Assembly: GCA_963697545.1 (NCBI GenBank)
Contig: CAVOOL010000022.1
Location: 12,979-76,978 of the forward strand
Source: an uncultured Bacteroidota bacterium
GTDB lineage: Bacteria; Bacteroidota; Bacteroidia; Chitinophagales; Chitinophagaceae
DNA length: 64,000 nt
Direction of reading: 5' to 3'
Below are positions 22,892 to 61,109 of this stretch, piece after piece. The notes under the pieces were generated by a model. That model worked only from the letters and a program-made list of their open reading frames with translations. It did not search any database and had not been told where the DNA came from. The number at the start of each line of letters is the position of its first letter. The stretch's first letter is position 1. The translations under genes were made by a program, and so were the position numbers.

Positions 22892-22963
22892 TTTATGAAC
22901 CCGGCAAGAATTACTTTGGCTTCTTCTGCTCGAAGCTGACTACGTTGCGTCGCACTCTTGTAC
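22892..22963 (-). repeat. GTACAAGAGTGCGACGCAAC-family repeat
   Basis: Exact 20-mer at 22944-22963 (minus) plus a tail ending GTTCATAAA. Confidence 0.85.
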
Positions 22964-23057
22964 GCTTTGTTCTAAACTCAGCATAACAGCGAGCTTTCAA
23001 TAAAGTATAAAAGAGGAATTGGACGCCGGCAAAAGCCCGCCGGATTAAATTTGCCGG

Positions 23058-23669
23058 ATGAATGAAATATCTGCCGATACAAAAGCCATTTTGGGTCTTC
23101 AGCTTCCTACCGATCCGCGCTGGGTAAACCTTGCAGAAAAATCATTGGAAGAGGTGTTGACCGACCACGCCTATTGCGAACAGAAAGCGGCCACAACCTG
23201 TATTTCTTTAATTCAGCGCTACAACCAAAAAGAAAAACTGGTAACCCAGCTGGCCCCTATTGTCACAGAAGAATGGGGACATTTCCGGCTGGTGCTGGCG
23301 GAGTTACAAAAGCGGGGCTTAAAACTGGGCCGGCAAAGAAAGGATGAGTATGTAAATGCGCTGGTTCAGTTTTGCCAGACAGGCGGCGCCGAAGAAGGGC
23401 GGCTGTTAGACCAGCTACTGATGATGGCCATGATTGAAGCCCGCAGTTGTGAACGCTTTAAGCGGTTAAGTGAAGGTTTGGAAGATGAATACCTGCGCAA
23501 GTTTTACCGGCGGTTTATGGAAAGCGAAGCCGGCCACTACACCTTGTTTATAGAGCTGGCAGAAACCTATATTGACAAGGAAAAAGTTAGAAAGCGCTGG
23601 AAGGAATGGCTGGACTATGAATCGGAAATAATAAAGAAGCTGGAACTGCGGGGTGACAGAATGCATTGA
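23058..23669 (+). CDS. miaE: tRNA-(ms2io6A)-hydroxylase
   Basis: LTDHAYCEQKAA, EEWGHF, IEARSCERF and SEAGHY motifs. Confidence 0.93.
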   Translation: MNEISADTKAILGLQLPTDPRWVNLAEKSLEEVLTDHAYCEQKAATTCISLIQRYNQKEKLVTQLAPIVTEEWGHFRLVLAELQKRGLKLGRQRKDEYVNALVQFCQTGGAEEGRLLDQLLMMAMIEARSCERFKRLSEGLEDEYLRKFYRRFMESEAGHYTLFIELAETYIDKEKVRKRWKEWLDYESEIIKKLELRGDRMH

Positions 23670-23754
23670 ACGGCGGAATGACAAACAAAAAATTCATTGG
23701 GAATTACCTGTGGCCTTAGAGATCGGCAACTCTATTAAATTGACTTTTCACTAT

Positions 23755-24747
23755 TCACCTTTGAAATAAATCAAGTTCTTTTTCAAAATTCAGGTAGGGA
23801 TACTGCTCTTTTAGTTTACACGTTTTTTGATAAAAGGATTGAAGAAACTTCCGGTGCTGGGCCGAGCCTGCATTGAAAGGCTTGTGTTGAAAGGCAAGGT
23901 TGATAGCATGAATTTCTTCCATTAGTGTTTTGGTGTTTTCATTCATACAGGCATCCACAAACTTTTCCCAAACGTATTGCGTGGCAAAATAATTGGGATG
24001 TACAAGATCTTCTGCATAAAAACGATAGTCACGCAGATCATCAATCACCAGCTCATAAGCAGGAAAATAATACAGCTTTTCAAATTTATCTACCAGGTGG
24101 TGAACCGCATGAATCAACACGGCCTTGCTTCGATTGTTTTCCACCACTCCTTCCCGCAAATGCCTGACAGGGCTGATGGTAAAAATGATCTTTAATTTTT
24201 GATTAAATAAAAACAGCCGGTGAATCATGTTGTCCAGCACCTTTAAAACTTCTTCGATGGTCATTAGCCTTCGGTGAAACCAATCGGCCGGTGCTTTGTG
24301 GTTATTGGCTGCCACCGAACCCACTTTGGCATTACTCGCTTTTTCTGTTAAGGTATAAATCCACGCCGAGCCAAGTGTGATCATGACATGGTCGGCATTT
24401 TTTAAATAGTCATGGGCCTCCTGCGTTGACGTATTGATCTTGTTTACAGTTTCCGGAACGTTCAAGCCGGAAAAGCGGCTGTGATGCTTCCAGCTGTGCC
24501 AGCCTTCATTTAAATTGAATAAATCGTTTTCTGTCAGCCGGGCATTTTCAACATAGCTGGTCAGGGCTTCGGCCACACTTACCGGGTTGAATAAAATGCC
24601 ATTGGGATTTTCCAGTACAGAGAATTTATGCTTCTTTAATTTCTCCCCTATATTTTCGGTAAAGCAGGAGCCGATCAAAAACAATTTATCCTTGTGTGTG
24701 ATTGGCTGCGGCAGCTTTTTTATATCAAATTCAAAATGAAACTTCAT
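23755..24747 (-). CDS. GSCFA domain protein
   Basis: IGSCFTENIG, TISPVRH, YFPAYE and DLVHPN motifs. Confidence 0.9.
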   Translation of the reverse strand: MKFHFEFDIKKLPQPITHKDKLFLIGSCFTENIGEKLKKHKFSVLENPNGILFNPVSVAEALTSYVENARLTENDLFNLNEGWHSWKHHSRFSGLNVPETVNKINTSTQEAHDYLKNADHVMITLGSAWIYTLTEKASNAKVGSVAANNHKAPADWFHRRLMTIEEVLKVLDNMIHRLFLFNQKLKIIFTISPVRHLREGVVENNRSKAVLIHAVHHLVDKFEKLYYFPAYELVIDDLRDYRFYAEDLVHPNYFATQYVWEKFVDACMNENTKTLMEEIHAINLAFQHKPFNAGSAQHRKFLQSFYQKTCKLKEQYPYLNFEKELDLFQR

Positions 24748-24776
24748 TGCGCTAACACAAATTTTTGAAACAGAAA

Positions 24777-25684
24777 TTATACGAATATTTCCGAGGCCAG
24801 TTGCAGGCTTTTTTGCAAGGCTTCTTTATTTAAATTACCAGTGAGCTTTTTTTCTTCCAGATAGGAAATGATGAATTCCGTATTCATATTTCCCACCAGG
24901 TCGTCTTGTGCCATGGGACAGCCGCCAATACCTTTTAAGGCCCCGTCAAAACGCCTGCAGCCGGCATTTACAGCAGCTTCCAGTTTCTCTTTCCAGTTTG
25001 TTGGTGTGGAATGAAGATGAACACCGAAAACAATATCCGGATATTTAGGAATTAAAGAATTTAAGGCAAACGAAATTTGATCAGGCGTTGCCAATCCAAC
25101 GGTGTCTGCCAACGAAATAATTTTAATGTCTCTTTTTACCATTTCATCAGCCCATTTCAATACGATTTCTTCATTGTAATCGTCGCCATACGGGTTGCCA
25201 AATCCCATGCTTAAATAAATAACCAGTTGCTTTTTATTCTGTAAACATAGATTTTGTATCTCCTCTACCCTGGTCAAACTTTCTTCCATGGTACTATTGG
25301 TATTTCGCTGCTGAAAAGTGGGTGAAATGGAAAAGGGAAATCCCAGGTAGGTTATGGCTTCATAAGCCATTGCTTCTTCGGCTCCGCGAACATTTGCTAC
25401 GATAGCCAACAACTTCGATCTTGTATCTTCCAACTTCTAACTTGGCAATAACTTCCCTGGTATCTGCCATTTGCGGAATGGCTTTGGCAGAGACAAAACT
25501 TCCAAAGTCAATGGTATCAAATCCAACCTGTAGCAGGGAATTGATGTATTCAATCTTTTTTTCAGTGGGAATAAAATGCTTCCATCCCTGCATCGCATCC
25601 CTGGGACATTCTATAAGTTGAATTCCCCCTGTCCCCCTAAAGGGGAGACTTAGATCAGTGAAGTGCCTTTTTTATCTCAGACAT
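24777..25684 (-). CDS. Hydroxymethylglutaryl-CoA lyase, frameshift near 25425; start uncertain and inside a repeat element
   Basis: IECPRDAMQG, DFGSFVS..AIPQMADT, GVHLH and GIGGCPMA motifs. Confidence 0.88.
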
Positions 25685-25922
25685 TTATTCATAATTGTAA
25701 TATTACTATGCAAAAAAAATGTATTAGTGAGACTAAAATTCTAAGACTTGCTTGCACAATCTGAATAGCCTTACAGAACGTATAAGAGTGCGACGCAAAA
25801 AGATGAAGTAGCAATACTAGCTCAGTACTAAAAATTAATATTCAGAACTAAAAAATGTTTGAGACGGAAATAAACTAAGCCACCTAAGTCCTAAGTCGGT
25901 CCCCTTTAGGGGGACAGGGGGA
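25624..25922. mobile_element. MITE-like element of about 300 bp with 30-bp inverted ends and an internal AAGAGTGCGACGCAA repeat
   Basis: TCCCCCTGTCCCCCTAAAGGGGA..GACTTAG at 25624-25653 and inverted at 25891-25922; repeat at 25780-25833; no transposase. Confidence 0.65.
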
Positions 25923-26679
25923 GTCGCTGTTTCATGGCTTCGTACAAGATCATTCCTGTGGCAACGGATACATTCAATGATTCAAAATCACCTGTCATAG
26001 GAATCTTGAATTTTTCATCACATACTTTCATCAGGGCCGGATAAATTCCTTTTTCTTCACTGCCCATTATAATGGCAGCCGGTTCTTTAAAGTCAACCTC
26101 AAAGACGTTTTTTGCAGCCGTCATTTCACTGGCTAAAACCTTAATGCCATTTAAATGTAATTCGTCAACGGCTTTCATTAAACTGTTGACGCGGCAAATG
26201 GCAATTTTTTCCAAAGCACCGGCGGAGGTAAGCACGGCATCTTCATTTAAGGCGCCAACGCCTTTGTCAGGAATAATGATGGCCTGTACGCCGGTACAAA
26301 AAGCTGTCCGGGCAATACCGCCAATGTTCCGCACATCCGTAATGCCATCCAGTATTAAAAAAAGCGGTACTTCACCTTTTTCAACCACCCACGAAATTAC
26401 TTGTTGCAAATCCTGGTAATGAACTTTTGAAAGCAAGCCAACACAACCTTCATGGTCTGGTATATTAAAGCTGTTTAGCTTTTCAACAGGCACATAATTA
26501 ACCGGAATATTGTGCTGTGCGGCCAGATTTTTGATCTGGCTGATGGCATCGCCAACTGCCTTTGTGTAGAGATAAATCCGGTCTAAAGCTTTTCCTGATT
26601 GTATGGCTTCAATAAGGGCATTTCTTCCAATAATGAGGGAGCTCTTTTTGGGTCTATGCTGGGGTCTGAAATTTTTCAC
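25906..26679 (-). CDS. rlmB: 23S rRNA (G2251-2'-O)-methyltransferase
   Basis: LDGITDVRNIGGIAR, MGSEEKG and SLNVSVA SPOUT motifs; GTG start. Confidence 0.93.
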   Translation of the reverse strand: MKNFRPQHRPKKSSLIIGRNALIEAIQSGKALDRIYLYTKAVGDAISQIKNLAAQHNIPVNYVPVEKLNSFNIPDHEGCVGLLSKVHYQDLQQVISWVVEKGEVPLFLILDGITDVRNIGGIARTAFCTGVQAIIIPDKGVGALNEDAVLTSAGALEKIAICRVNSLMKAVDELHLNGIKVLASEMTAAKNVFEVDFKEPAAIIMGSEEKGIYPALMKVCDEKFKIPMTGDFESLNVSVATGMILYEAMKQRLPLSP

Positions 26680-26731
26680 CTGTCAAAAGTAAGGCAGTAG
26701 TAAAAGAAAACAGAAGTAATTACGATTAACC

Positions 26732-27216
26732 CTATTGCTTCTTGCTGATAGCCAAAGGAAAAGCGATAAGAAGAAAAAGCACAACAACGCCAACCAGGAT
26801 AAATTTGATGACAGCGCAGTAAAAAACTACTTGCATAACAGAGGGTTGAAACCGGCTGCTAAAAGTCAGTAACATCAGGAAATTTTCCAGGACATCGAAA
26901 CCGGCGGCTGCAACGGCCATTGAAATGGCCCGGTCACTCCAGTTTCCCATTTCAACCTTTGTTTAATGAACCTGATGGCCGCAATAAAAAACCAGGTGTA
27001 GGCAGCAATGAAAAGAAAGTCCAGGAGAATATTTAGTGTAACATTATCAGCGTTCCAGAATAACTGCAACTGGTGTAACCGTTCAGGCGTTTTTGCGAAT
27101 TCCAGGTCGAGGATACCATTTTGACTTACCGGCGTAATCAACGTGCTGCCCTGCCAGCGCATGATAAAAATGCTTGCCAGCAATAGTAAAAAAGAAATGA
27201 GAATGCTTCTTTTCAT
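26732..27216 (-). CDS. Hypothetical membrane protein, frameshift near 26945
   Basis: Two hydrophobic ORFs (LDFLFIAAY; FDVLEN) that join into one four-TM protein. Confidence 0.7.
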
Positions 27217-27230
27217 AGGCTGAAAATTAA

Positions 27231-27256
27231 AAAACCTCTGTCTAAACAGAGGTTTT
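27231..27256 (-). terminator. Terminator after metK
   Basis: AAAACCTCTGT-ctaa-ACAGAGGTTTT. Confidence 0.8.
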
Positions 27257-27276
27257 ATAATGTGGTTGTAAATTAT

Positions 27277-28530
27277 TTATTTAATTCCAAAAGCTTTTTT
27301 CACTTTTGGCACATAATCCAGTTTCTCCCAGGTAAATAATTCAACTTTCTTTTTAACAACTTTTCCATCAGGTGTAGCAAACTCTTTGGTTACCACTTCA
27401 GGTTTACGGCCCATGTGTCCATAAGCTGCTGTTTCGCTGTAAATAGGATTACGCAATTTCAAACGCTGTTCAATAAAGTAAGGACGCATATCAAAAATGC
27501 CTTCTACAATCTTAGCAATTTCGCCATCACTTAAGTCCACTTTTGCCGTGCCATAAGTATTTACATTCATACTGGTTGGCTGGGCAACACCAATAGCATA
27601 GGAAACCTGCACCAGTACTTCATCGCAAACACCGGCAGCAACCAGGTTTTTGGCAATGTGACGTGTAGCATAAGCAGCCGAGCGGTCAACTTTTGAAGGA
27701 TCTTTTCCGCTAAAAGCACCACCACCATGTGCACCTTTTCCACCATAGGTATCAACAATGATTTTACGGCCGGTTAATCCTGTATCGCCATGCGGACCAC
27801 CGATTACAAACTTACCGGTTGGGTTGATATGGTATTTAATATTGTTGTTGAAAAGCTTAGCGTATTTTTTGTATTTGGCTTTTACACGTGGGATTAAAAT
27901 ATTGATGATATCTTTTTTGATTTGCTCCAGCATTTTTGCTTCTGTACCAAAATCATCATGCTGGGTAGAAACCACAATGGCATCAATGCGCACCGGGCGG
28001 TTATTGTCATCATATTCCAGGGTCACCTGGCTTTTTGCATCAGGACGCAAATATTTAATTTGCTTATTCTCACGGCGTAATGCAGCCAGTTCCTGTAAAA
28101 GTTTATGGGCAAGATCTAATGCCAAGGGCATGTAGTCTTCTGTTTCATTGGTGGCATAACCAAACATCATTCCCTGGTCGCCGGCACCTTGTTCTTCTTT
28201 TTTCTTTTTGTCAACACCCTGGTTAATATCAGCTGATTGTTCATGAATAGCAGAAAGAATACCGCAGGAATTAGCTTCAAACATATATTCGCTTTTGGTA
28301 TAACCAATTTTGCGAATTACCTCGCGGGCAATTTCCTGTACATCCAGATAAGCCTTTGACTTTACTTCACCTGCTAATACAACCTGTCCTGTAGTAACCA
28401 GTGTTTCGCAGGCAACTTTTGAATTAGGATCAAATGCTAAGAAATTATCAATCAATGCATCGGAGATCTGGTCGGCAACTTTATCCGGGTGTCCTTCCGA
28501 TACGCTTTCTGATGTAAATAAATAAGGCAT
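27277..28530 (-). CDS. metK: S-adenosylmethionine synthetase
   Basis: [19 protein letters not shown] and [16 protein letters not shown] motifs. Confidence 0.98.
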
Positions 28531-28570
28531 GAAACAAAAAATTGTTATGGTTAGAAATAAAAATCGGGTG

Positions 28571-28578
28571 CAAAGATA
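28571..28578 (-). promoter_or_regulatory. -7 promoter box of metK
   Basis: TATCTTTG, 40 nt before the ATG. Confidence 0.65.
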
Positions 28579-28593
28579 ACACCCGGCTATTAA

Positions 28594-30052
28594 TTATAGA
28601 TTGGAATAAATGATGCGTAAGCGTAAGCGCTGGGAGTCGTCTGTATAAGAACCTCCTGCCAGCACCACACGGCCTTCGGCTATGTTATTGAGCACAGGAA
28701 TGCTTCCAAATCCTGTTTTGTTTAAAGCTGCTTATAAAACCAGGCGCATATTCAGAAGCTCTTAACGGAGCAAATAAACGTAAGGTGTCGGTAGGTTCGT
28801 GCCGGGTAATAACGCCTTGCACAAACCGGGTAATGTTAAACGTGTATTTGCCGGATTTAAGGTTGCCTCCAAACGTAGCAAAATCAAGGCTATTCATTCC
28901 TATGGTCAAATCCCGGTAGAGTAAAAATGCTGTATCAGGTGTTCCATTGCCTTTTCTGTCAAGAAAAAGGCGCGATGGCGGAGTGAATATATTTTCCGAT
29001 GCAGAAGGAATTGCTGTGGCAATCAATTCGGCTCTGTGAATGACTTTGTTACCTAATGAGCTAAGATCCGGAATCAATACGGAGGCATAAGCGCCGGAAG
29101 GAGCTGATTGCAAATAAATCTTATCATCGGAAGCCGCGCCGTTATTTTGATAGCTTGCCCAACCGCCGGACGGTGTTTGTTTTATATAATTTGCCTGTCC
29201 GTGAACCGAATGAACAAAGTCAGTATGCAAAGTATCTTCTGTGCCATTAGAATGCTTAATTCTAAAATAAAAAGTAAGTTTGGTTTTAGCGGTATTGGCA
29301 AGATTAAAATAAGACAATACGTTACCGCTGTTATCAGCCTTCACTGCAAAGCCTGCAAATAATCTTCTGAAGTTATCGCCGCTTGAAGAATCCTTATAAT
29401 AAATTCCGCTGGCGGATGTATCACCGTTTAAAAACCGTGTTGCCAGGGAGTTGTTTAATTTAATCCGCACCACGTTCGCTTCCCTGGCTGTTGTGGTATC
29501 TGTTTTTATGGTAATGGAATCTTTTAAAGAGCTGACACTAAAAGTTTTGGAGCCTAATTCCGATCCAGTAGTAGCAAAATCAGTTGCCGGATCAGCATAA
29601 CGGTAAAGGCTGTCGGCACTAAAGCCTGCATTGGGATCGATCTCATAAACCCTTAAGGTTTGAAGGCCACTCATCGTATCGCCATAACCACCCTGGTAAG
29701 CCAAAGAAAGAACTATAGAGTCCATAACTAAAGTTGAATCTTTGTGTACAAAAGGGTAAACCCCAAGTACTGCCGGCACAATATTAAAATGAAAATTGGC
29801 ATGTGTTTGTCCAAACTCCGGATCATTTAGATCACCTGCGGCTACATAGTCGTTGGGTAACACCTTTGTGGTATCATTAAAACGCAGGTTATTGGTAACC
29901 GTGTTTAAAGCAACTTCAAACGTATTTACATTGTCAACTGCCGGAATCAGGTCGCCACCCAGATCTGTAGCTTCATTAATTTTTTTGCAGGAAACAGTGC
30001 CGATGATAATAAATAAAGCCGCGAGGGAAAAGACCGAAGTGTACTTCTTCAC
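28594..30052 (-). CDS. DUF4270 family lipoprotein, frameshift near 28720
   Basis: Lipobox TVSC; DSIVLSLAY; corrected C-terminus GRVVLAGG...RLRLRIIYSNL; usual position next to the glgA-like gene. Confidence 0.8.
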
Positions 30053-30078
30053 AAATAAAGATTAAAGCAGATTGAAAA

Positions 30079-30894: not shown

Positions 30895-30982
30895 TGTTAC
30901 CGTTTTAAACTCAGGAAAAAGGTGTGCAAAGTTAACCATTTCTTGTTAAACCCGGCATTCATCGTTTCTGTAATTACCCAGT

Positions 30983-31825: not shown

Positions 31826-31863
31826 CAAAGACTTCACGTCCTTCAATTACCTTTGCACCCGCT

Positions 31864-32208: not shown

Positions 32209-32475
32209 AAAATATTGAACGGGAACAGGAGTCTTGAATAAAAGAAGGTAAATCATCCGCTTTATTTCTGGTAGTTGATCAATAAATAATTTTACTACTC
32301 AATGTTGCGGTGAGGTGTAATTTCCTGCAACAGTCTCTCCTTTCGCCGCATTAAAATTTACCATTGTACATGAGGCAACCTTACTAACAAAACTCAGGCT
32401 GTACTATCTTTTCGGATTGTTCCGCACTTGTTCTTATGGCCAATATTTAATATTCCTTCGGTATCTTCGAACGGC

Positions 32476-34032: not shown

Positions 34033-36120
34033 ATGACAAATCCCAAACGCAAGACCATTCCAAGAGATATAAGCTGGCTTTCTTTCAATGCTCGTGTGTT
34101 GCAGGAGGCCGCTGATCCCAGTGTGCCGCTGCGTGAACGGATTCGTTTTCTGGGGATTTTTTCCAACAATCTTGATGAGTTTTTTCGTGTACGGGTGGCT
34201 ACCCTTAAACGCATGATCCAATACGGCAGCAAGGCCAAAATGCATTTGGAAATTAATCCCGAGAGTATCCTGGAAGAAATTCAAATCACCGTATTAAATC
34301 AGCAGAGTGAATTCGACCGCATTTGGGACGGAATTTTACAGGAATTAAGAGAACAGAAGATCTTTTTGATAACCGAAAAAGAACTGAATACTGAGCAAAA
34401 AGATTTTGTGCAGCGCTATTATGAAGAAGAAGTAAGTGCCAATGTTATTCCCCTCATGATTGAAAGCATCCAGGAACTACCCTTTCTCAGGGATAAATCT
34501 ATTTATCTTGGAGTAGTGATGTGGAAAAAGGAAAGTGCTTTAAAGAGAATGTATTCCATTATTGAAATTCCTACCCGGTTCATGAGCCGGTTTGTTCTTC
34601 TGCCTTCGCCCGACAATGAATGCCATATTATTTTGCTGGAAGATGTAATACGGTTCAACCTTCCCGAGATCTTCAGTTATTTTGGTTATGATCAGTATCA
34701 ATCGGCTGTATTTAAATTAACCCGGGATGCGGAAATTGATATTGATAATGATATTTCTACCACGCTCATTCAAAAAATTGAAAAGGGATTAAAAAACCGC
34801 CGCAAGGGAAAACCTGTTCGTTTTATTTATGATAAGGAAATGGACCCGGGCTTGCTGGAATACCTGATCCGGAAATTCAATCTTTCCAAAAGAGATAATA
34901 TCATTCCCGGCTCACGCATTCACAACTTCAGGCAGTTTATGGATTTTCCCAAAGAAGTGTTTCATAATGAAAGCAAAAGCCGCAAACCCTTCGACCATCC
35001 TTTATTAATTGAAAACCGGGTTACAGACGTGGTTATGCAACGGGATGTGATGCTGCACTTCCCCTATCATTCCTTTAATGCGGTTATCGATCTTTTGCGT
35101 GAAGCGGCTATTGATCCGGATGTGACCTCCATAAAAATAACAGCCTATCGTTTGGCACAGCAATCCAAGATCGTTAATGCATTGATCAATGCCGTTAGAA
35201 ATGGAAAGCAGGTAACGGTTATGCTGGAAGTAAGAGCCCGGTTTGATGAAGAAGCCAACCTGGCCTGGAAGGTGCGGCTGGAAGATGAAGGCGTAAAAGT
35301 TTTGATTGGCATTCCCAATATGAAGGTGCATGCCAAACTTTGTGTCATCCGAAAGCGGGTGCAGGATCGTATTGTTCAATACGGTTTTGTAAGCACAGGT
35401 AATTTAAATGAAGACACGGCAAAGGTGTATGCCGATCACTGCCTGCTCACGTCCAACAGAAATATACTGTCCGACGTGAACCGTATTTTTAATTATATAG
35501 AACATTATAAAACAGGCACGCATTTTTTAAAAGCCTGTTCCACCTTAATTCCAAGCCCGAACTTTGCAAGAAAGGAAATTGTAAAACTGATTCGTACGGA
35601 AATAAGAAATGCTCAAAAGAAAGGCCGCGGTATGATCACCGCCAAAATGAATTCTTTTTCGGATGATGAGCTCATTAATGAATTGTATGAAGCAGCAAGA
35701 TCCGGTGTTGAGGTCAATCTTATCATAAGAGGCATTTTTTGCATGTTCTCGGAAAATGAAAAATTTATTAAACCGGTCAGGGCCATCAGTATTGTAGATG
35801 AATACCTCGAGCATGCAAGGGTCTGGGTGTTCCATAACGGGGGAAAGGAAAAAATATTCATTTCATCAGCCGACTGGATGGTAAGAAATCTGGATCATCG
35901 TGTGGAAGCCACCTGCCCTGTTTTTGATGACCGGATCAAACAGGAGTTAAAAGATATCCTGGACATTCAACTGCACGATAATGTAAAAGCAAGGTGGCTG
36001 AACAATGATTTAAGCAATGAGTATGTAAGTACCGATGGAGAAAGAATACGTTCGCAGGTAGAAACCTATTTTTATTTACACCAAAAAATAGAAATTCCAG
36101 TTGAGATTAGCAGCAATTGA
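34033..36120 (+). CDS. ppk1: Polyphosphate kinase 1
   Basis: RDISWLSFNARVL, SNNLDEFF, LHFPYHSF, VHAKL and SSADWMVRNLDHRVE motifs. Confidence 0.97.
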   Translation: MTNPKRKTIPRDISWLSFNARVLQEAADPSVPLRERIRFLGIFSNNLDEFFRVRVATLKRMIQYGSKAKMHLEINPESILEEIQITVLNQQSEFDRIWDGILQELREQKIFLITEKELNTEQKDFVQRYYEEEVSANVIPLMIESIQELPFLRDKSIYLGVVMWKKESALKRMYSIIEIPTRFMSRFVLLPSPDNECHIILLEDVIRFNLPEIFSYFGYDQYQSAVFKLTRDAEIDIDNDISTTLIQKIEKGLKNRRKGKPVRFIYDKEMDPGLLEYLIRKFNLSKRDNIIPGSRIHNFRQFMDFPKEVFHNESKSRKPFDHPLLIENRVTDVVMQRDVMLHFPYHSFNAVIDLLREAAIDPDVTSIKITAYRLAQQSKIVNALINAVRNGKQVTVMLEVRARFDEEANLAWKVRLEDEGVKVLIGIPNMKVHAKLCVIRKRVQDRIVQYGFVSTGNLNEDTAKVYADHCLLTSNRNILSDVNRIFNYIEHYKTGTHFLKACSTLIPSPNFARKEIVKLIRTEIRNAQKKGRGMITAKMNSFSDDELINELYEAARSGVEVNLIIRGIFCMFSENEKFIKPVRAISIVDEYLEHARVWVFHNGGKEKIFISSADWMVRNLDHRVEATCPVFDDRIKQELKDILDIQLHDNVKARWLNNDLSNEYVSTDGERIRSQVETYFYLHQKIEIPVEISSN

Positions 36121-36995
36121 TATAGGAAGCAACGCCGCCCGTTTATTAATTAACGATGTGATTATCGGCCCGCAGGGGCGGCCTGAGTTTGTAAAGCTGA
36201 CACTGGTACGGGTTCCCTTGCGACTGGGCTTTGATGTATTTGAACGCGGCGAGATCTCAAGGGAAAAAGAAGAAATGCTTGTTAAAACCATTAAATCGTA
36301 CAAGCTTCTTATTGATGTTTACAATGTAAAGAATTATATCACGGCCGCCACCTCTGCCATGCGTGACGCTGCTAATGCAAAGCAAATCCTGCAGCATGTA
36401 CAAAAAGGAAACCGGCATAGATATTAAAGTTATCAGCGGCGAAGACGAGGCTTCTTACATTTATGAAAACCACGTAGCAGAAAATTTAAGCAACCAGGAA
36501 TCCTATCTCTATATAGATGTGGGCGGCGGCAGCACAGAACTTACTTTTTTTAGCGATGGAAAGCTGGCTGCCAAACGGTCCTTCAATATCGGTACCATCA
36601 GGCTTTTAAAAAACCAGGTAACGGAAGAGAACTGGAATGAAATGAAAATCTTCATCAAGGAAAGAAGGACAGGTTTCCATCATATTACAGCGATTGGTTC
36701 GGGCGGCAACATCAATAAAGTGTTTTCACTTTCCAAGCGCAAGGAAGGCAAACCCCTGACGCTGGATTTGCTCCGGGATTATTATAAAGAGTTCAGCAGT
36801 CTTTCCCTGGCACAACGCATTACTCTGTATCGCCTTCGCGAAGACCGGGCAGATGTCATTGTGCCTGCGCTGCTCATTTATATCAATGTCATGCGCTGGG
36901 CCGATGCAGGTGAAATTTTTGTTCCAAAGATTGGCCTGGCCGATGGGCTGATTCATATTTTATATGATAGAGTGAAGCATGCAAAGCATGTGTAA
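36101..36995 (+). CDS. ppx: Exopolyphosphatase (Ppx/GppA family), frameshift near 36410
   Basis: AAIDIGSNAARL, ATSAMR, DVGGGSTE and RADVI motifs. Confidence 0.9.
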
Positions 36996-37035
36996 AGAAA
37001 GTATGTAACAAGCATCGTCTCTTTGTTCATCGTCT

Positions 37036-37372
37036 GTTGCGTCGCACTCTTGTACGTTCGGTAATGCTAATGGGCAAGAGAAAATGAACCACAGCGAACA
37101 CAGAGGAGCACAGAGATTTAAAACATGTTCTCTCGCCGTGTTCTCCGTGTCCGCTGTGGTTAAAAATTGGCTACCAAACATCCATAACAACCTTTGCTAA
37201 GGGTAAGACATTCCATTTCTTCAAGAAATGGAATGTCTCTTTTAAAATTTCTGTGATCTCTGTGTACACCTCCGTGGCTCTCTGTGGGCCAAAAAAGATG
37301 AATAGAATTGTTGCAGTTGAAGAGTGCGACGCAACGAAAGCTAAATAGCAGCCATGCAGCTTAGTTCATAAA
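37036..37372. repeat. Composite palindromic repeat island
   Basis: Outward-facing AAGAGTGCGACGCAAC copies at 37036-37055 and 37316-37335; ACCACAG/CTGTGGT hairpin at 37087-37161; perfect 15-bp stem at 37206-37238. Confidence 0.85.
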
Positions 37373-37400
37373 TTCCTAACTTGCCCCTCAAATTTTATAA

Positions 37401-38219
37401 ATGAGCGCCAATACTCCGGAGGTAAAACGGATTACCACCAACACACTGCAAAAGATGAAAGCATCCGGAACAAAAATTTCGATGCTTACCGCTTATGATT
37501 TTTCTTTCGCCGGTTTGTTTGATGCCGCAGGCATTGATGTTCTTCTGGTTGGGGATTCTGCGTCCAACGTCATGGCCGGACATGAAACCACGCTTCCCAT
37601 TACCTTAGACCAGATGATCTATCATGCTTCTTCCGTTATCCGTGGCGTCAAGCGCTGCCTGGTAGTCGTGGACCTGCCGTTCGGTTCTTACCAATCAAAT
37701 AGCGATATAGCCCTGGCTTCTGCCGTTCGTATTATGAAAGAAACGGGAGCCCATGCCGTTAAACTGGAAGGCGGGGAAGAGATATTGGAATCGGTACGAA
37801 AAATTATAGGCGCTGGTATCCCGGTAATGGCGCATTTGGGATTAACGCCCCAATCTATTTATAAATTTGGTACCTATAATGTTCGGGCAAAAGAAGAAGC
37901 CGAAGCCAACAAATTGCGCAAGGATGCGAAACTTTTGGAAGAAACGGGTTGCTTCGCTGTGGTGCTGGAAAAAATTCCTGCCAACCTGGCTAAAGAAGTT
38001 TCTGAAAGCCTGCACATTCCTACCATTGGCATTGGCGCCGGTAAATATTGCGACGGGCAGGTATTGGTCATGCATGATATGTTAGGGATCAATACGGAAT
38101 TCAAGCCACGTTTTCTTCGCCAGTATTTAAATATTCATGAGCAGGCAACAAAAGCCGTGCAGCAGTATATTGACGATGTAAAATCAAACAACTTTCCCAG
38201 CGACGCCGAATCCTATTAA
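37401..38219 (+). CDS. panB: 3-methyl-2-oxobutanoate hydroxymethyltransferase
   Basis: [32 protein letters not shown] and GIGAG motifs. Confidence 0.97.
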
Positions 38220-52444: not shown

Positions 52445-52518
52445 CAATTTGATTTTCTTTCAGTACCATTACTTTGACAATCGACTAAGCTGTTCCATCA
52501 TTCAAAAAACTCTGCCTG

Positions 52519-54721: not shown

Positions 54722-55391
54722 CATTATCGTGTACCCTGCCGGCTTCTGTTTTCACCATGCGTGCCGGGAATTTCTGTATCACAATATAATCATGCGTGGC
54801 CATTACCACGGAGGTACCATAGTCTCTTGCAATATGAATTAAAAGATTCATGATCTCATCTGAAGTTTCAGGATCCAGGTTTCCTGTCGGCTCATCTGCC
54901 AGTATCAGTTTGGGAGAATTTAACAGGGCCCTGGCGATATCTACTCTTTGCTGTTCACCGCCGCTCATTTCAAAAGGCATTTTAAAACCTTTCGATCTCA
55001 GGCCAACCTTATCAAGCACATCGGCAATTTTTTCGTTCATCAGCTTTTCATCTTTCCAGCCAATAGCTTTTAAAACAAATTTGAGGTTTTCATTAACATT
55101 CCGGTCGGTCAGCAATTGAAAATCCTGGAAGATCACTCCCATATTTCTTCTTAAATAAGGCACGGTTTTCCACGTTAGTTTGCGAACGTCATACCCTACC
55201 ACCGTAGCCTCTCCTTCTTTTAAAGGCAGCTCGCCATATAAGGTTTTTAAGAGGCTTGATTTTCCGGTACCGGTTTTTCCTACCAGGTAAACGAACTCAC
55301 CCTTGTCCACAGAAAGATTTACATCTTCCAAAACCAAATTATCACCCTGGTAAATATTGGCGCTCCTGATATCAATAATTTTTTCCGACAT
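54705..55391 (-). CDS. ftsE: Cell-division ABC ATPase FtsE-like
   Basis: [26 protein letters not shown] and [11 protein letters not shown] motifs. Confidence 0.85.
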
Positions 55392-55454
55392 CCCACAAAT
55401 TTATTTGCTGCAAAATAACGTAAGAAAGAACAAGGGCCAAGCCAATAATTTTAA

Positions 55455-55490
55455 AACTAAAAAATTAGTTGTTTAACTAAATAATTAGTT
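55455..55490. promoter_or_regulatory. Tandem palindromic operators, probably for BlaI
   Basis: AACTAA-aaaa-TTAGTT and AACTAA-ataa-TTAGTT, 20 bp apart, just upstream of the blaI-like gene. Confidence 0.7.
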
Positions 55491-55516
55491 ATAACTTGGA
55501 TTTACAATTCTATTGC

Positions 55517-55879
55517 ATGAAGATACTCACCAAAGCAGAAGAACAGGTAATGCAAATTGTCTGGAAATTAAAGGAAGGTTTTATCCGTGATATTATGGAA
55601 GCGCTGCCTCCTCCAAAGCCGCACCAGAATACTGTAGCTACCATGCTTAAAATTTTGGTTGAAAAAGAGTTTGTAGGCATCCGGGTGTTTGGCAGGCAAC
55701 ACCAGTATTACCCGCTCATTAGCAAGGACACTTATTCAAAGGCCAGTATTAAGGCTTTGGTGAAAAGCTATTTTGGCGGCTCGTTCAGCGAAGCGGTTTC
55801 TTTTATGGTGAAGGAAAATAACATCAGTCTTGAAGACCTGGAAACCTTATTGCAACAACTCAAAAAAGGAAAAAAATGA
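55517..55879 (+). CDS. BlaI/MecI/CopY family repressor
   Basis: LTKAEEQVMQIVW, TVATMLKILVEK, YYPLIS and FGGS motifs. Confidence 0.92.
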   Translation: MKILTKAEEQVMQIVWKLKEGFIRDIMEALPPPKPHQNTVATMLKILVEKEFVGIRVFGRQHQYYPLISKDTYSKASIKALVKSYFGGSFSEAVSFMVKENNISLEDLETLLQQLKKGKK

Positions 55880-58400
55880 TAGCATTGGCTTATTACCTTC
55901 TGAAAGTGATTGTATGCTCAGGCGTTCTTTTTTTATATTACCATCTTGCACTGCGCAACAAGGTCTTTCACCAGTGGAACCGTTTTTATTTGTTGGCCAT
56001 CGTGGTTCTTTCCCTCCTGGTGCCGGTGCTGCAATTTCATTTCATCTATACTGAAGATGCATCCAGCCGCACCATACAATTATTACGGGTGGTACAATCC
56101 GCTGATAATTATATGGAAACGATCTATATACAAAATCATCGTTCCTTGACAACCGCGCAGTGGCTGAGTATTGTTTATGCAGGCATATCCGCTATCATCC
56201 TGGCAGCAGTGGTCCGGTCGTTATTTAAAATATATTTTATTGTAAGACGGCATAAAGTTCAATTGGTGAACCAGATCAGGTTTGTTGCTACGCAAGAGCG
56301 GGGAACACCCTTTTCATTCTTCCGCTATATTTTCTGGAACGAAAAAATTGATATTAATACCCCAACAGGACAGCAAATCTTTCAGCATGAACTGGTGCAT
56401 GTAAAAGAGGCCCACACCTTCGATAAACTTTTTCTGCAGGTAATCCTGATTTTATTCTGGTGCAATCCTTTCTTTTGGCTGATTCGAAGGGAACTGCAAT
56501 TGATCCATGAATTTATTGCCGATAAAAAAGCCGTACAGCATCATGATACGGCAGCATTTGCTGCCATGATACTGCAGTCAGCCTATCCGCACCAGTTCAG
56601 CAGCTATTACGAATCCAATTTTTCCAATCATCCTATAAAACGAAGACTCCTTATGCTTACGAAAATTCAAAACCCACGGATTAATTACATAAGCCGCATT
56701 CTGGCTTTGCCTTTGATTGCTTTTACAGTATTAGCTTTCACGTTCCGCACAAAAAACAGCAGAACAATCATTCCTCTTGACAAGGAAATTACTGTTGTTA
56801 TCGATGCAGGACATGGAAGAATGGCGAACGGATTAATGAACGGTGCCAAAGCCGAAGGTGTTTATGAAGACGATATTGTATTGGCTCTAGCCAAAAAAGT
56901 AGCAGAAACGAATGCCAATAATAAAATCAATATTGTGTTGACAAGAACATCTGCTGAAAATGTGGATTTGAGTAAGCGAGTGGAAATTGCAAAAGAAAAG
57001 AAGGCCGATCTTTTCATTTCTTCAGCTTCATGTGGGGGCATCAAAAGATGACGCAAATATTAATGGAATCGAATTACTTGTATCTAGCAAAAACACTGTT
57101 TTTCAACAACAAAGTCAATTATTGGCTTCTGTGTTAAAAGAAGAATTAGCCACCGTTTATACTACTTTTCCTGAGTTGAGAAAACGTCAAGTTGGCTCTT
57201 GGGTACTTGATAAAAATGTTTGCCCTTCTGTGTTAATAGAATGCGGTTATGTAACCAATGAAAAAGACAGGGGCTTCATCACTGGTGAGGCCAATCAAAA
57301 ACTGATAGCGGAAAAAATAGTAACCGCTATTGAAAGGTATGCGGCTGCACTTGAAAAAGGTTTGATTATGCAAAACCCAACAGACACCTTGCCGCAAAAA
57401 GCCGGAAGGGGAATCAAGGCCATTAATATAAATAGAAATTCAGGCATGATCACCATATCAAATGCCGATGGGTCAAGCGATGCTTTAAGTATAGAGGAGG
57501 CAAAACAGAAAAAGCTGATCAGTGAAAACGTCACAACTACACAAACCACAATAAAGCAATGGAGCAGCAAAGAACCTCTATTATTTGGATGGGAAAGAAT
57601 TCACCGGCGGTCTAAACAAATTAGACCCAAATATAATCGAGTCTGTAAGGGTTTTGAAAAATCAATCCGCCATTTCAAAATATGGTGAAAAGGGTAAGAA
57701 CGGAGTAATTGAGATATTTACAAAGACTGAAAATAACATTTCAGACACAGTACCCAAAAACACGCCGGTTTTTAAAAAACCTGAGGTCGAAGCCTCCGTG
57801 GATAAAAATGAATGGAGAAGTTTTTTAGAAAAGAATCTTCAATCGGTTATTGAAAATGCTGCGAAAGAAGGAATGCCTCCTGGACAATACACCGTTAACA
57901 TCAGATTTATTGTAAAGAAAGACGGCAACATAACAGATTTTAAAGCGTTGAATGATCCCGGTTACGGCCTTGTGCAAAAGCTTTTAGAGATCATACCAAA
58001 TTCTCCCAAATGGAAGCCCGCCAAACAAAATGGCAAAGCTGTAAACTCCTACCATACGCAGCCCATAACATTTGTTATTGCTGATTGCAGCGATTCAGAA
58101 GATACCAATCCGTCGGTTAACGGTTTGCCTGTCACAGATGTTAATGAACTTAAATCAAGGAGCATTCATGATTTAATACAAGTAAGCAAAAAAGATGAAA
58201 TCCTGTCTTTTACATTAACGGTTGATACAGACGAAGGCGATGTTGCTACCCTGAATCATTCCGGAAACGAATACACAGCAAAAGACAGATGGTTTATAGA
58301 CAAATACATCAAGTCAAACAAGCTTTTTACAGTCGATTATATACTTGTTAAGCGAGACGGTAAAGAAACCAAAATCCCATCAAAAATTTACAGATTATAA
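55876..58400 (+). CDS. M56 (BlaR1-like) peptidase fused to Amidase_3, plug-like and TonB C-terminal domains; frameshifts near 57015 and 57580
   Basis: FSFF, HELVH and LIHEFIAD (M56); DAGHG, LHV and IECG (amidase); SVRVLK..SAISKYG.KG.NGVIEI (plug-like); RFIVKKDG..KWKPAKQNGK (TonB_C). Confidence 0.85.
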
Positions 58401-59572
58401 TTGATCGTATTTTTTGAAAGGCGTATTTCCAATTCTTTATTCCCTTCTTCTACCCTTCCAATCACCTGTGCATCCATACCAAATCCAGTTGCAATGCTGA
58501 TCATGCGGTCAGCATTTTTTTCATCGGTATAGATCTCCAGCCGGCAGCCCATATTAAACACCTGGTACATTTCCTTATCATCGGCGCCGCTGGCCTGCTG
58601 AATAATGTTGAAGATTTCGGGAGCCGCAAATAAATTGTCTTTCACAACCTTTACATTGTCCGGTACGTATTTCATGCACTTGGTTTGTCCTCCGCCGCTG
58701 CAATGGATCAATCCATCCACCGCATCAAACTGCTCTTCCAAAATTTGCTTTACCACAGGTGCAAAGGTTCTTGTTGGCGAAAGAATCAGCTTGCCAATAT
58801 TGGTTTTGAACGTTTCGTTTTTAAAACCAATATTTATTTCATCCGTCAATCTGTGTTTTCCAATATAAACTACATCGTCGTTTAACGACGGCTCAAAGGT
58901 TTCCGGAAAGTTTTGTGCATAATATTTATTCAACACATCATGCCGGGCACTGGTCAGACCGTTACTGCCAATACCGCTGTTGTATTCGCTTTCGTAAGAT
59001 GATTTGCCATAACTGGCCAACCCCACTATCACATTACCGGGTTTTATTTTTTCATTGGTAATGATCTTTTCTTTCGGCCATCTTGCCGCCATCGTTCCAT
59101 TTACCGCAATGGTTCGCACCACATCGCCCACGTCAGCGGTTTCGCCACCCAAAAAAGCAATATCCACATCAAAATCCTGCATGGTATCAAAAAACTCCTG
59201 CGTGCCTTCAATCAATGCCTGCAGCACCTCGCCGGGAATTAAATTTTTATTCCGGTCAATAGAAGAAGAGAATAATAATTTATCATAAATACCTACGCAC
59301 AACAGGTCATCCAGGTTCATCACGATGGCATCCTGTGCAATGCCCTTCCAAACAGACAGATCGCCGGTTTCTTTCCAGTATAGATAGGCCAGGATGCTTT
59401 TAGTGCCGGCGCCATCGGCATGCATCACGTTTATCCAGGCTTCGTCATTCCCCAATACATCCTTATAGATCTTGCAAAATGCTTTTGGATAAAGCCCTTT
59501 ATCAATGTTTTTTGTAGCGGCGTGAACTTCTTCTTTCTGGGCGGAAACTCCTCTTTTGGAATACAATGACAT
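58388..59572 (-). CDS. purM: AIR synthase (phosphoribosylformylglycinamidine cyclo-ligase), Bacteroidota type
   Basis: HADGAGTK, MNLDDL, GGETADVG, SNGLTSARH and FNMG motifs; start taken as MSLYS. Confidence 0.9.
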   Translation of the reverse strand: MSLYSKRGVSAQKEEVHAATKNIDKGLYPKAFCKIYKDVLGNDEAWINVMHADGAGTKSILAYLYWKETGDLSVWKGIAQDAIVMNLDDLLCVGIYDKLLFSSSIDRNKNLIPGEVLQALIEGTQEFFDTMQDFDVDIAFLGGETADVGDVVRTIAVNGTMAARWPKEKIITNEKIKPGNVIVGLASYGKSSYESEYNSGIGSNGLTSARHDVLNKYYAQNFPETFEPSLNDDVVYIGKHRLTDEINIGFKNETFKTNIGKLILSPTRTFAPVVKQILEEQFDAVDGLIHCSGGGQTKCMKYVPDNVKVVKDNLFAAPEIFNIIQQASGADDKEMYQVFNMGCRLEIYTDEKNADRMISIATGFGMDAQVIGRVEEGNKELEIRLSKNTINYNL

Positions 59573-59590
59573 GGCGCAAAGATAGAAGAA

Positions 59591-59716
59591 GTTTATAGTT
59601 TGTGGTTTGTAGTTTATAGTTGATGTAGAACAATGCATGTCTTTGATAAGTGGCGCAAGAAATGGCAAGATTCTGGCTTTGGAAGAACTACAAACCACAA
59701 ACTAAAAACTACAAAC
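59591..59716. repeat. Heptamer-based inverted repeat between the divergent purM and ribF promoters
   Basis: The reverse complement of 59591-59614 (AACTACAAACCACAAACTATAAAC) matches 59686-59709 at 23 of 24 positions. Confidence 0.85.
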
Positions 59717-59735
59717 TGTTATTATCTTCGCGGCC

Positions 59736-60656
59736 ATGCTGGTTCACCGGACGATTGAGAATTTACCACCGTTTAGAAATGCTGTGATCACAATTGGCAC
59801 ATTCGACGGCGTGCACGAAGGACATAAAAAAATCATTGCTGCGCTGATCGCTGAGGCAAAAACCATTAATGGCGAGTCGGTGATCATTACATTTGATCCG
59901 CATCCCCGTAAGATCGTTGAGCCGGACAAGCCGCTGCAATTGATCAACACGCTGGAGGAAAAAACAGAATTGCTTGCCAAAACAGGAATTGATCATCTGG
60001 TTATTGTCCCCTTTACTCCCGGCTTTGCCGAACAGTCAGCCGAACAATACATAAAGGACTTTCTCATTGATAATTTTCACCCGGCCACCATTATCATTGG
60101 CTACGATCATCATTTTGGTAAGGGAAGAAAAGGAAATTACAAATTGCTGGAAGAAAAAGCTCCTGTTTTTAATTATACACTGCTGGAAATACCAAAACAT
60201 ATCCTGGATGAAATTGGCGTAAGTTCTACCAAGATCAGGAATGCCTTGCTGGCAAGTGATATTGAAACGGCTAACAAACTTTTGGGTTATGATTTCTTTT
60301 TTGAAGGAAAAGTGGTGGAAGGCGACAAGTTAGGCCGGCAATTGGGTTATCCTACGGCTAACCTGGAATATACCGATAAGGAAAAAATTCATTTGGGCCA
60401 TGGTGTGTATGCCGTGTATGTTGAGATCAATGGCGTTGTAAAAAAAGGAATGCTAAGCATTGGCAACCGGCCCACACTGCTTCATTCCGATGAAAAAATA
60501 GAGGTGAATATTTTTGATTGGGACGAAGAAATTTATGGACAAACGCTTAGGGTGATTGTAAAAAAATACTTACGCGGGCAGGAGAAATATGATTCCCTTG
60601 AGGAATTGATCCGGCAATTGCATAAGGATAAGGAAGACAGTTTGTCCTGTTTGTAA
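59736..60656 (+). CDS. ribF: Bifunctional riboflavin kinase/FAD synthetase
   Basis: GTFDGVHEGH, FDPHP, GYDHHFG, VSSTKIR, GRQLGYPTAN and RPT motifs. Confidence 0.97.
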   Translation: MLVHRTIENLPPFRNAVITIGTFDGVHEGHKKIIAALIAEAKTINGESVIITFDPHPRKIVEPDKPLQLINTLEEKTELLAKTGIDHLVIVPFTPGFAEQSAEQYIKDFLIDNFHPATIIIGYDHHFGKGRKGNYKLLEEKAPVFNYTLLEIPKHILDEIGVSSTKIRNALLASDIETANKLLGYDFFFEGKVVEGDKLGRQLGYPTANLEYTDKEKIHLGHGVYAVYVEINGVVKKGMLSIGNRPTLLHSDEKIEVNIFDWDEEIYGQTLRVIVKKYLRGQEKYDSLEELIRQLHKDKEDSLSCL

Positions 60657-60720
60657 GAAATGATTTGTGCAAGTTTTATAAGCAGGATTCGATAATTTAT
60701 TTTGGCTTCAGCTGATGAAA

Positions 60721-61109
60721 TTTTTGATTACCGGCTGCATGGCTACTATGGAACTTCTGTTGCGCTGCGTCCGGCTAATGACGGATCGCACTCTTGTACT
60801 GTAACAATTCTATGCAACAAGACCTCGGAGGTTTTAGAAACCTCCGAGGTCTTCAGGTTTAGTCCACAGATCCCTCGTGCCTCGGGATGACAAGGTTGAA
60901 GCGATACTGATTTCAATCACTCCAACTATCAGAATAACTGCTAAAAAGATATCGCTGTTTGTCATGCTGACGAAGGAAGCATCTATGGCTAATACAATAA
61001 GGAATATTGCCTGTGGTAGTGCACTTTCAGTGTTGCTGAATAGAAAACCTTGCGTACAAGAGTGCGACGCAACGAAGGTTAAATAGTAGTAACACGGCTT
61101 AGTACAAAA
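60721..61109. repeat. Composite palindromic repeat island
   Basis: Outward-facing CAAGAGTGCGA copies (minus, ending 60799; plus, 61054-61073); hairpin AAGACCTCGGAGGTTT-taga-AACCTCCGAGGTCTT at 60819-60853; GGGATGACA...TGTCATGCTG pair. Confidence 0.85.

Follow-up and report, generated by a model that had tools for sequence, protein, structure and literature searches.

Copies of the repeat in the window

The window analysed here, i.e. the whole stretch of 64,000 nt from an uncultured Bacteroidota bacterium of the family Chitinophagaceae (contig CAVOOL010000022.1, positions 12,979 to 76,978) whose own numbering is used throughout for window coordinates, contains six copies of a short repeat that we call the element. 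Each copy consists of a 20-nt core, almost invariant between copies, that is flanked by a loose head and a longer tail. The six positions had been pointed out by an earlier sequence-only reading of the same DNA and all of them are correct; three cores are exact and two carry 2 mismatches. Only 0.01 matches at up to 3 mismatches are expected by chance in the 64 kb, and none of 100 shuffles of the window reached 5 matches. A profile hidden Markov model (HMM) built from 201 copies recovers the six copies and nothing else, and a covariance model (CM) run with its filters off finds the same six alone, the next best match having E = 0.34. All six lie between genes, as had been noted.

Copy c1 (22892-22996, minus strand; HMM E = 1e-12, CM 52.4 bits) sits between the divergent genes rpsO and miaE, with its head at 22964-22996, an exact core at 22944-22963 and a tail that exceeds the usual length and ends in GCCGGGTTCATAAA at 22892-22905. 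The Bacteroidetes-type -7 box of rpsO, TACCTTTG, is found at 22829-22836 (minus strand) between c1 and rpsO, and it is conserved in a syntenic locus of a related genome (L051; loci of related genomes are cited by such numbers where they have to be told apart). Copy c2 (25747-25835, plus strand; HMM E = 1.6e-7, CM 58.5 bits) has the core GTATAAGAGTGCGACGCAAA at 25780-25799, with 2 mismatches, and its tail faces a SpoU-type methyltransferase gene (25906-26679, minus strand) from the 3' side. The next two copies stand head-to-head, 260 nt apart: c3 (36998-37088, minus strand; HMM E = 9e-16, CM 63.1 bits), with an exact core at 37036-37055 and a tail only 2 nt from the ppx stop codon (36995), and c4 (37283-37373, plus strand; HMM E = 6e-17, CM 75 bits), with the core GTTGAAGAGTGCGACGCAAC at 37316-37335 (2 mismatches) and the panB start codon (37401) 27 nt beyond the end of its tail.

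The last two copies are also head-to-head, at a distance of 254 nt. Copy c6 (61021-61111, plus strand; HMM E = 1.4e-19, CM 83.5 bits) has an exact core at 61054-61073 and a tail that faces the 3' end of holA (61145, minus strand), while the tail of c5 (60721-60832, minus strand) faces the 3' end of ribF (60656). The sequence-only reading located c5 properly but took it for a partial copy at 60786-60799, whereas it is a complete core at 60759-60799 (minus strand) split by a 21-nt insertion (the segments of the split core read, in order, GAGTGCGA, TCCGTCATTAGCCGGACGCAG and CGCAAC). The insertion lengthens the central stem (-6.5 kcal/mol, z = -1.5), and the copy reaches 52.4 bits in the CM search though it was left out of model building.

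Structure of the unit and its core alleles

Alignment of the six window copies, and then of about 200 copies from related genomes, gives an asymmetric unit of about 91 nt made up of a loose 33-nt head, the 20-nt core GTACAAGAGTGCGACGCAAC and a 38-nt tail. The head is TTGCTGAATAGAAT-like and contains aaTGCTGAATAgaat followed by about 8 nt before the core; a conserved stretch of the head, TGCTGAATAGAAT, placed 15-25 nt upstream of the core, had been overlooked in the sequence-only reading. The tail motif which that reading described is genuine: the tail runs from gAAaGCTtaATAGtAGTA to aGCCGGGtaCAtAAAAA, is TAG-rich at first, then has GCCGGG and then C-A and an A run, so that it ends in GCCGGGTWCAWAAAAA (GCCGGG-N2-CA-A-run).

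The length of about 91 nt follows from pairs of similar copies, since these share ends about 33 nt before and about 38 nt after the core. In such pairs the likeness begins 33-37 nt before the core and ends 32-40 nt after it. The L068/L081 pair is 90.6% identical and shares exactly the segment from -33 to +38 around the core, a pair in L038 is 85% identical with the same -33 and +38 ends, the heads of a pair in L096 are 100% identical, and unit ends are also given by a pair in L050 and by the L002/L050 pair.

The core differs sharply from the rest of the unit. Numbers of copies with 0, 1, 2 and 3 core mismatches are 143, 33, 19 and 9, respectively, without a tail of decayed copies. An excess at 4-5 mismatches is explained by a second core allele, GTACAAGTGAGTGACACAAC (type 2), of the form GTACAAG(T/G)GAGTGACACAAC, whose copies have the same head and tail as those of type 1; the two alleles co-occur in many genera. 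In L050 a type-1 and a type-2 copy (428, plus strand, and 5166, minus strand) have nearly identical tails, and in L011 (4238-4300) a type-1 and a type-2 copy stand head-to-head with 25 nt between their cores. Together these copies show mosaicism or exchange between the core alleles. Over all pairs of copies, heads are 33% and tails 38-42% identical without gaps, and these values are the same even within one genome.

A third core-like word, TGAAAGGATTGCGACGCAAC, was seen three times (L010 at 3357, L031 at 5211 and L074 at 6646). It shares TTGCGACGCAAC with the element and may be another relative of the family.

Occurrence in related genomes

One genome per species was scanned for the exact 20-mer, and related loci were then searched around the matches. 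The 20-mer was found in at least 120 stretches from 72 assemblies, covering about 10 named genera of Chitinophagaceae. Among the matches listed, all belong to Chitinophagaceae, Chitinophagales or unclassified Bacteroidota, except for one 1.4-kb contig binned as a gammaproteobacterium; the named carriers among them are Segetibacter, Ferruginibacter, Flavisolibacter, Flavihumibacter, Lacibacter, Foetidibacter, Pinibacter, Limnovirga and Ilyomonas. Metagenome-assembled genomes (MAGs) labelled Chitinophaga also carry the exact 20-mer. Window genes are 65-77% identical at the DNA level to the syntenic loci of carrier genomes, which makes the window organism a relative of theirs from soil or roots, and flanking genes across carrier assemblies are only 65-80% identical.

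The predicted abundance of roughly one copy per 10 kb agrees with the 6 copies per 64 kb of the window and with the one further copy per 7.9 kb that is found in 865 kb of related loci when one seed per locus is excluded. Window and loci together hold 235 copies in 929 kb; the CM gives 220 matches in 790 kb of window plus loci, and the loci of a single MAG, JBBRDW, contain 41 copies in 95 kb. The element is abundant outside the window in metagenomes too, as contigs from root and soil show 10-30x the depth of their surroundings at the core. Contigs break at the core, and contigs ending at the repeat made a metagenome comparison of empty sites uninformative. Plasmid and phage collections gave no match, and a literature search found, among the papers it covered, none with the sequence or describing repeats of Chitinophagaceae. 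The sequence-only reading knew of no formal description of the family. To judge by Rfam 15, the collections of plasmids and phages and the papers covered, it is undescribed.

Position relative to genes

All 235 copies are intergenic; 13 apparent overlaps with open reading frames (ORFs) are due to over-extended start codons, e.g. upstream of glmS and trpB. The placement of the unit between genes is polar. In 130 of 186 copies the tail side is the one that lies nearer to an ORF (p = 6e-8). Gaps to the ORF have a median of 57 nt at the tail and of 123 nt at the head, and gaps of 10 nt or less occur on the tail side in 44 copies as against 17 on the head side. Where the tail meets a convergent gene, the distance from core to stop codon peaks at 38-42 nt and the A run is directly followed by TTA, CTA or TCA; start codons often lie within 5-10 nt beyond the A run, as in ilvD, trpB and a gene in L009. 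Copy c1 is an exception to this polarity in that it stands upstream of the rpsO -7 box with its head nearer to a gene. Tails face gene ends (111 cases) as well as gene starts (76 cases), hence the unit has no fixed relation to the direction of transcription.

Neighbouring copies are arranged tail-to-tail across a gene in 49 cases, head-to-head in 46 and directly in 19, and 23 of the 25 pairs less than 300 nt apart are head-to-head, typically with 72-122 nt between the cores. The tail-to-gene polarity and the head-to-head pairs together mean that genes are bracketed by copies with their tails inward. The bracketed genes are ordinary ones (guaB, pgk, atpD, the DAHP synthase gene, pgl and a response regulator), and the neighbouring genes of the copies have no common functional theme. 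A composite transposon or inverton formed by inverted pairs was considered and rejected: the enclosed genes are housekeeping genes, and c1 and c2 enclose miaE, GSCFA-family and HMGL-like genes.

A short exact core that is found throughout a family, in a few "dialect" alleles and between flanks that are unrelated from copy to copy, recalls a drive in the manner of the DNA uptake sequences (DUS) and uptake signal sequences (USS), in which biased uptake or recombination, and not local function, would keep the core identical across species. The hundreds of copies per genome that extrapolation gives, and the inverted pairs in spacers of convergent genes, are in line with such a drive. However, the unit is longer (about 91 nt) with a head and tail of its own, and a polarity directed at ORFs (p = 6e-8) is not expected from uptake bias. 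The density of 1 per 8 kb is also low, DUS and USS being about ten times as dense, and we are not aware of any description of natural competence in Chitinophagaceae. We regard drive by uptake as very unlikely.

The spacers contain further repeats and hairpins. In the window these lie at 25898-25916, 37087-37161, 37206-37243, 37252-37290, 60820-60852, 60873-60896 and 60960-60983; co-residents of the spacers include hairpins resembling terminators, a long hairpin built from CACAGAGG-type words, and two words, CCTCGGGATGACA and GTCATGCTGACGAAGGAAGCATC, that we take to be widespread in Bacteroidota. A tiny ORF, MTASATILSKRYKK, is found in L097 (6180-6235, minus strand) between tail-to-tail copies 136 nt apart, and short frames ending in KK and a stop codon abut copy tails in L019 (about 5900-5950) and, downstream of copies, in L068 and L086. 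Two window genes are split: pnp, which encodes PNPase (19545-22022, minus strand), into S1/KH (20118-20714), RNase_PH (20953-21276) and RNase_PH_C (21630-22022) parts, and ppx (36101-36995, plus strand) into 36101-36427 and 36363-36995. The splits are frameshifts that reflect either assembly errors or pseudogenes.

Tests for coding capacity and structure

The peptides with VQECDAT that appear in translations of the core had been called spurious, and this agrees with the larger sample: an in-frame ATG is present in only 18% of copies, and in the core the third positions of codons vary no more than the first and second. A coding peptide in this frame was rejected, as there is no conserved start and the upstream openness of the frame is the same as that of the other two; moreover, the common core variants are non-synonymous, and synonymous-site variation is not seen.

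A known RNA family was ruled out with Rfam 15. At gathering thresholds the window gives tRNA-His alone and four related loci give nothing, and a permissive scan of 36900-37450 returned only noise. A conserved RNA or DNA fold was dismissed as well: RNAalifold yields at most the 3-bp TGC-GAC-GCA hairpin, and 0 pairs on 150 CM-aligned copies; mutual information across copies is a local signal without long-range covariation; and minimum free energies compared with shuffles give a mean folding z of -0.25 for the forward and +0.1 for the reverse strand. Folded as DNA, the standard mini-hairpin has -0.8 kcal/mol (z = +0.2).

The sequence-only reading had proposed that selection acts on the structure of this mini-hairpin. 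In favour of the proposal, C12:G16 of the small palindrome is replaced by T:A in 15 of 150 copies, as counted in sequences and not in independent events, and is never unpaired. This is the one compensatory pair type, it separates the two alleles, and the outer pair T10:A18 is lost in type 2. Insertions of 16-25 nt are present at the palindrome in six copies. Only two of the six (c5 and a copy in L034) have a lengthened stem. Selection on the hairpin is possible and not established, since the two stem-extending variants reach DNA-fold z-scores of only -1.5 and -1.8 and the remaining four do not exceed shuffled sequences in stability. With a standard mini-hairpin of only -0.8 kcal/mol, the hairpin argument has less force than the sequence-only reading gave it.

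The position of the tails raises the question of whether the element works at the level of RNA, lying in messenger RNAs as sense copies in 5' untranslated regions and antisense copies in 3' untranslated regions, and acting as a site for an RNA-binding protein or by pairing of the two kinds of transcript, either mutually or with an RNA in trans, through the perfect 20-nt core. Tails are often 0-10 nt from start codons, which leaves no space for a -33/-7 promoter, therefore those copies would be transcribed as part of the leader. Copies in reverse complement begin directly past stop codons and ahead of terminator hairpins (c3, c5), the unstructured, A-rich 3' end suits a leader, and 20 fixed bases suggest base pairing. 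Furthermore, copies occur in wastewater metatranscriptome contigs, although these are strandless and may include DNA, and the window organism is not in the RNA runs that were searched. Against such a role, both orientations are found between co-directional genes (65 vs 55), c1 is outside the rpsO mRNA because it is upstream of the -7 box, and there is neither a conserved fold nor long-range covariation. On balance we consider an RNA-level element unlikely. The canonical Bacteroidetes promoter (TTTG ... TAnnTTTG) shows no positional enrichment in the unit or before it.

RAYT genes of the Chitinophagaceae

The sequence-only reading had called the family REP-like and suggested a search for a RAYT or other HUH (Y1) gene flanked by the motif. 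A RAYT-like gene is indeed present in one of the related loci (L099, 5109-5742, minus strand, read through one frameshift); its product matches the NCBIfam model REP_Tyr_transpos (NF047646) with E = 4.8e-14, which is below the curated cutoff, and carries both NHFH and YIHQNP, the motifs that mark the Bacteroidetes subclass 2.6. In a survey of RAYT proteins this subclass is described with the same two motifs, and its cognate repeats are termed "atypical" (PMC6006769). Homologues are widespread in Chitinophagaceae as a single gene at a fixed locus, sprA-ruvA-fabH-RAYT (L121-L128, around 4001-4600).

The RAYT genes of L099 and L121-L128 are flanked by another palindrome, GTGTCNGACGYC (GTGTCTGACGCC-N-GGCGTCTGACAC), and not by the element core. 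The palindrome is tandemly repeated in L127 (4585-4725) and was found nowhere else in the 120 loci (119 others) nor in the window. Its words TGACGC and TGACAC faintly resemble the two core alleles. In none of the nine RAYT loci does a copy of the element come within 4 kb of the RAYT gene. The hypothesis of mobilization by RAYT fails its defining test, because RAYT is flanked in all nine loci by a different palindrome and has no core nearby.

These results bear on the idea that the element is a classical REP or REPIN moved by the Chitinophagaceae RAYT, a Y1 HUH transposase. The idea was attractive: the element is extragenic, high-copy, long-lived, vertically inherited and found in inverted doublets, the family has a single conserved RAYT of the very subclass with "atypical" cognate repeats, and the words of the RAYT palindrome look like the core alleles. 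But neither the window nor any of the other 119 loci contains that palindrome, the RAYT genes stand apart from the element, the element lacks a palindrome of REP size (its stem is limited to 3 bp), and the arms of its doublets are not complementary beyond the consensus. REPIN hairpins were likewise discarded, the doublet arms being unrelated outside the family consensus. The name REP-like does not hold in its strict sense, and we give a RAYT-driven REP hardly any chance, the idea being largely refuted.

No mobilizing enzyme came to light. In the 865 kb of related loci there is no recurrent neighbouring gene family and no multi-copy transposase-like family.

Evidence on duplication, turnover and inheritance

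Several observations point to copying of the unit. Pairs with high flank identity are 3-8 times commoner within genomes than between genomes, and one MAG has three copies with the same 21-nt insertion in the core. Orthologous spacers may be filled or empty: the spacer upstream of ilvD measures 247 nt with the element in L005 but is lacking in L093, where the two genes have a 4-nt overlap, and a second spacer is filled and 414 nt long in L117, and empty and 18 nt long in L082. The element is upstream of rpsO in the window and downstream of it in L051. The median length of spacers is 299 nt with the element and 74.5 nt without it, and filled spacers also contain other repeat families. In the expanded ilvD spacer of L005, for instance, a tandem GAATCAAT run with a GTCATTGCAAGCAGCGCGAAGCAA-type repeat (about 6945-6985) is present that is absent in L093.

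Other positions are shared. In three genera the element is found between ribF and holA, and copies occupy the same side of the orthologous prfC, transaldolase and DEAD-box helicase genes in two species each, which suggests old inherited copies or preferred sites. Orthologous copies such as those between ribF and holA have no copy-specific similarity beyond the consensus and are compatible with common descent or with re-insertion.

The same observations help to weigh the view that the element is a host cis-acting site without mobility, either an operator or a boundary (an insulator, a polar roadblock or a topological barrier, e.g. a gyrase or nucleoid-protein site). The inward tails around guaB, pgk, atpD, the DAHP synthase gene and pgl, the core that is fixed across genera, the lack of decayed copies in the HMM, CM and mismatch counts, and the recurrence beside orthologous prfC, transaldolase, DEAD-box helicase and holA/ribF genes in different species would all be natural for such a site. 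It is difficult to see, however, why sister species would then have orthologous spacers that are empty, with genes overlapping or 18 nt apart, and why the neighbours share no functional theme; similar copies within genomes, discrete ends and a propagated insertion variant point to copying, and the element co-occurs with other junk-like repeats in expanded spacers. A purely host-borne site is in our opinion improbable.

If the unit is copied, the route could resemble that of a retro-type, SINE-like element, with an RNA intermediate and priming from the A-rich 3' end at T-rich targets beside genes. The asymmetry of the unit, whose 3' end is sharp, A-rich and variable in length and whose 5' end is ill defined, the lack of both terminal inverted repeats (TIRs) and a palindrome, and the tail junctions at A/T-rich sequence beside start and stop codons fit this route. 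On the other hand, no reverse transcriptase gene was seen near copies, there is no 5'-truncated series (all copies retain the core and most of the head), target duplication is not seen and we know of no bacterial precedent for a SINE-like element. We find this route very doubtful indeed. A direct-repeat or target-duplication relation between the head (GCTGAATAG) and the tail (GCTTAATAG) was also considered and showed no more than a marginal same-copy excess (similarity 5.88 of 8 for the head and tail of the same copy vs 5.74 for permuted pairs).

Interpretation

Any explanation has to account for a widespread and abundant intergenic family with discrete unit ends, a fixed core beside near-random flanks, polarity towards genes, and orthologous spacers whose filled or empty state differs between species. 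The explanation that we tentatively prefer is an old, duplicative, REP/BIME-like resident element whose core would be the docking site of a sequence-specific factor. The element would be a non-autonomous DNA element which is, or formerly was, duplicated as a discrete unit, and which would now be a long-term, mostly vertically inherited resident of spacers, much as REP and BIME are. We propose that the core is kept constant because something reads it, i.e. because it serves as a docking site for a sequence-specific factor that acts in trans. This factor is most likely a protein that would bind the core, reading either the duplex or the small palindrome TGCGACGCA, and might be either the copying enzyme of the element or a host protein making use of it. 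Purifying selection rather than drive would then maintain the core. The polarity, for its part, may come from tolerance: the unstructured A-rich tail could abut start and stop codons, while the head side would be taken up by promoters, terminators and other repeats.

A number of points weigh against this proposal. In the 865 kb of related loci no transposase is found beside or between copies, and neither a copying enzyme nor a core-binding protein was identified among the neighbours. TIRs were not detected, the head TTGCTGAATAG... and the tail end ...GCCGGGTWCAWAAAAA not being complementary, and eight well-matched pairs, with no close strains among them, show no visible target duplication at their ends. 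Similarity between copies in the head is uncorrelated with that in the tail (r = 0.03), which gives a mosaic pattern that agrees poorly with a simple copy-and-paste of the whole unit. The 20 fixed bases correspond to 40 bits; this exceeds what a protein site usually needs and may be a sign of pairing with a nucleic acid or of a homogenizing drive. Because the loci were fetched by means of the exact 20-mer, the conservation of the core is partly ascertained, and any copies in which it had decayed would go unseen, the flanks alone being too weak for detection. Even so, an intact core beside saturated flanks cannot be reconciled with uniform decay, ascertainment notwithstanding. Finally, gene distances are approximate, with ORFs called crudely as the longest of at least 100 aa (rpsO, for example, was missed).

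It is also conceivable, though we think it rather unlikely, that the element represents a new class, non-palindromic and without inverted-repeat bounds, with an invariant core in two alleles and a gene-bracketing polarity. An element of this class might be copied from its A-rich 3' end through an RNA or single-strand intermediate, or might be a polar boundary or insulator that is read by a dedicated factor.

Repeat families that persist are few (REP/REPIN, DUS/USS, Correia) and each of them has revealed dedicated machinery or a host function. The present element fills a sizeable share of the spacers across many genera of an ecologically important family of soil and rhizosphere, and the reader of its core, once identified, would be a new mechanism of mobilization or a new global genome-organizing factor in Bacteroidota. 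In practical terms, the core breaks metagenome assemblies and gives rise to false ORFs and over-extended start codons, and as a taxon marker or a target for typing it could be of use in work on Chitinophagaceae.

Comparison with known repeat families

It is instructive to compare the element with the known repeats of bacterial spacers. The mycobacterial interspersed repetitive units (MIRUs) are similar in as much as they are 40-100 nt long and lie in operon spacers, tight against the flanking stop and start codons. MIRUs are, however, tandem and in one orientation relative to transcription, with small ORFs running into the stop and start codons on either side, whereas copies of the element stand alone or as inverted pairs, may have either orientation and lack a conserved ORF. 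Transposable elements of the miniature inverted-repeat type (MITEs) such as Correia/NEMIS, ERIC/IRU, BOX and RUP share with it a discrete, non-coding unit of about 100 nt, many intergenic copies, presence or absence between relatives and a possible co-transcription with neighbouring genes. In contrast to MITEs, the element has no TIRs, eight well-matched pairs show no visible target duplication, no related autonomous insertion sequence was found in the 865 kb, and its copies are extremely diverged outside the 20-nt core rather than uniformly similar.

The DUS of Neisseria and the USS of Pasteurellaceae resemble the element in having an exact family-wide core, "dialects", weakly conserved flanks and inverted pairs between convergent genes. 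The element differs from them in being about ten times rarer, exclusively intergenic, longer and polar towards genes, and evidence of competence is lacking. Going by these features, the resemblance to DUS and USS would be limited to the exact core found throughout the family.

The REP and BIME sequences of enterobacteria and pseudomonads offer the most extensive parallel. Like the element, they are short and extragenic, number in the hundreds, persist as long as the lineage, alternate in orientation, have loose motifs beside a conserved part, take UTR-proximal and intra-operon positions, and consist of a conserved master sequence with few mutated neighbours. There are clear differences as well. 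The element has no imperfect palindrome of 20-40 nt and no GTAG/CGTC hairpin foot (the core begins with GTAC, and CGTC is found inside the reverse-complement core without being a hairpin foot); its doublets form no REPIN-like hairpin, since the arms of close pairs are unrelated even though 23 of 25 pairs are head-to-head; and it is asymmetric, with a head, a tail and a polarity directed at ORFs, while the RAYT of the family has a palindrome of its own. Although it fails the structural and RAYT criteria that define these families, the element is, in its behaviour, most like populations of REP and BIME.

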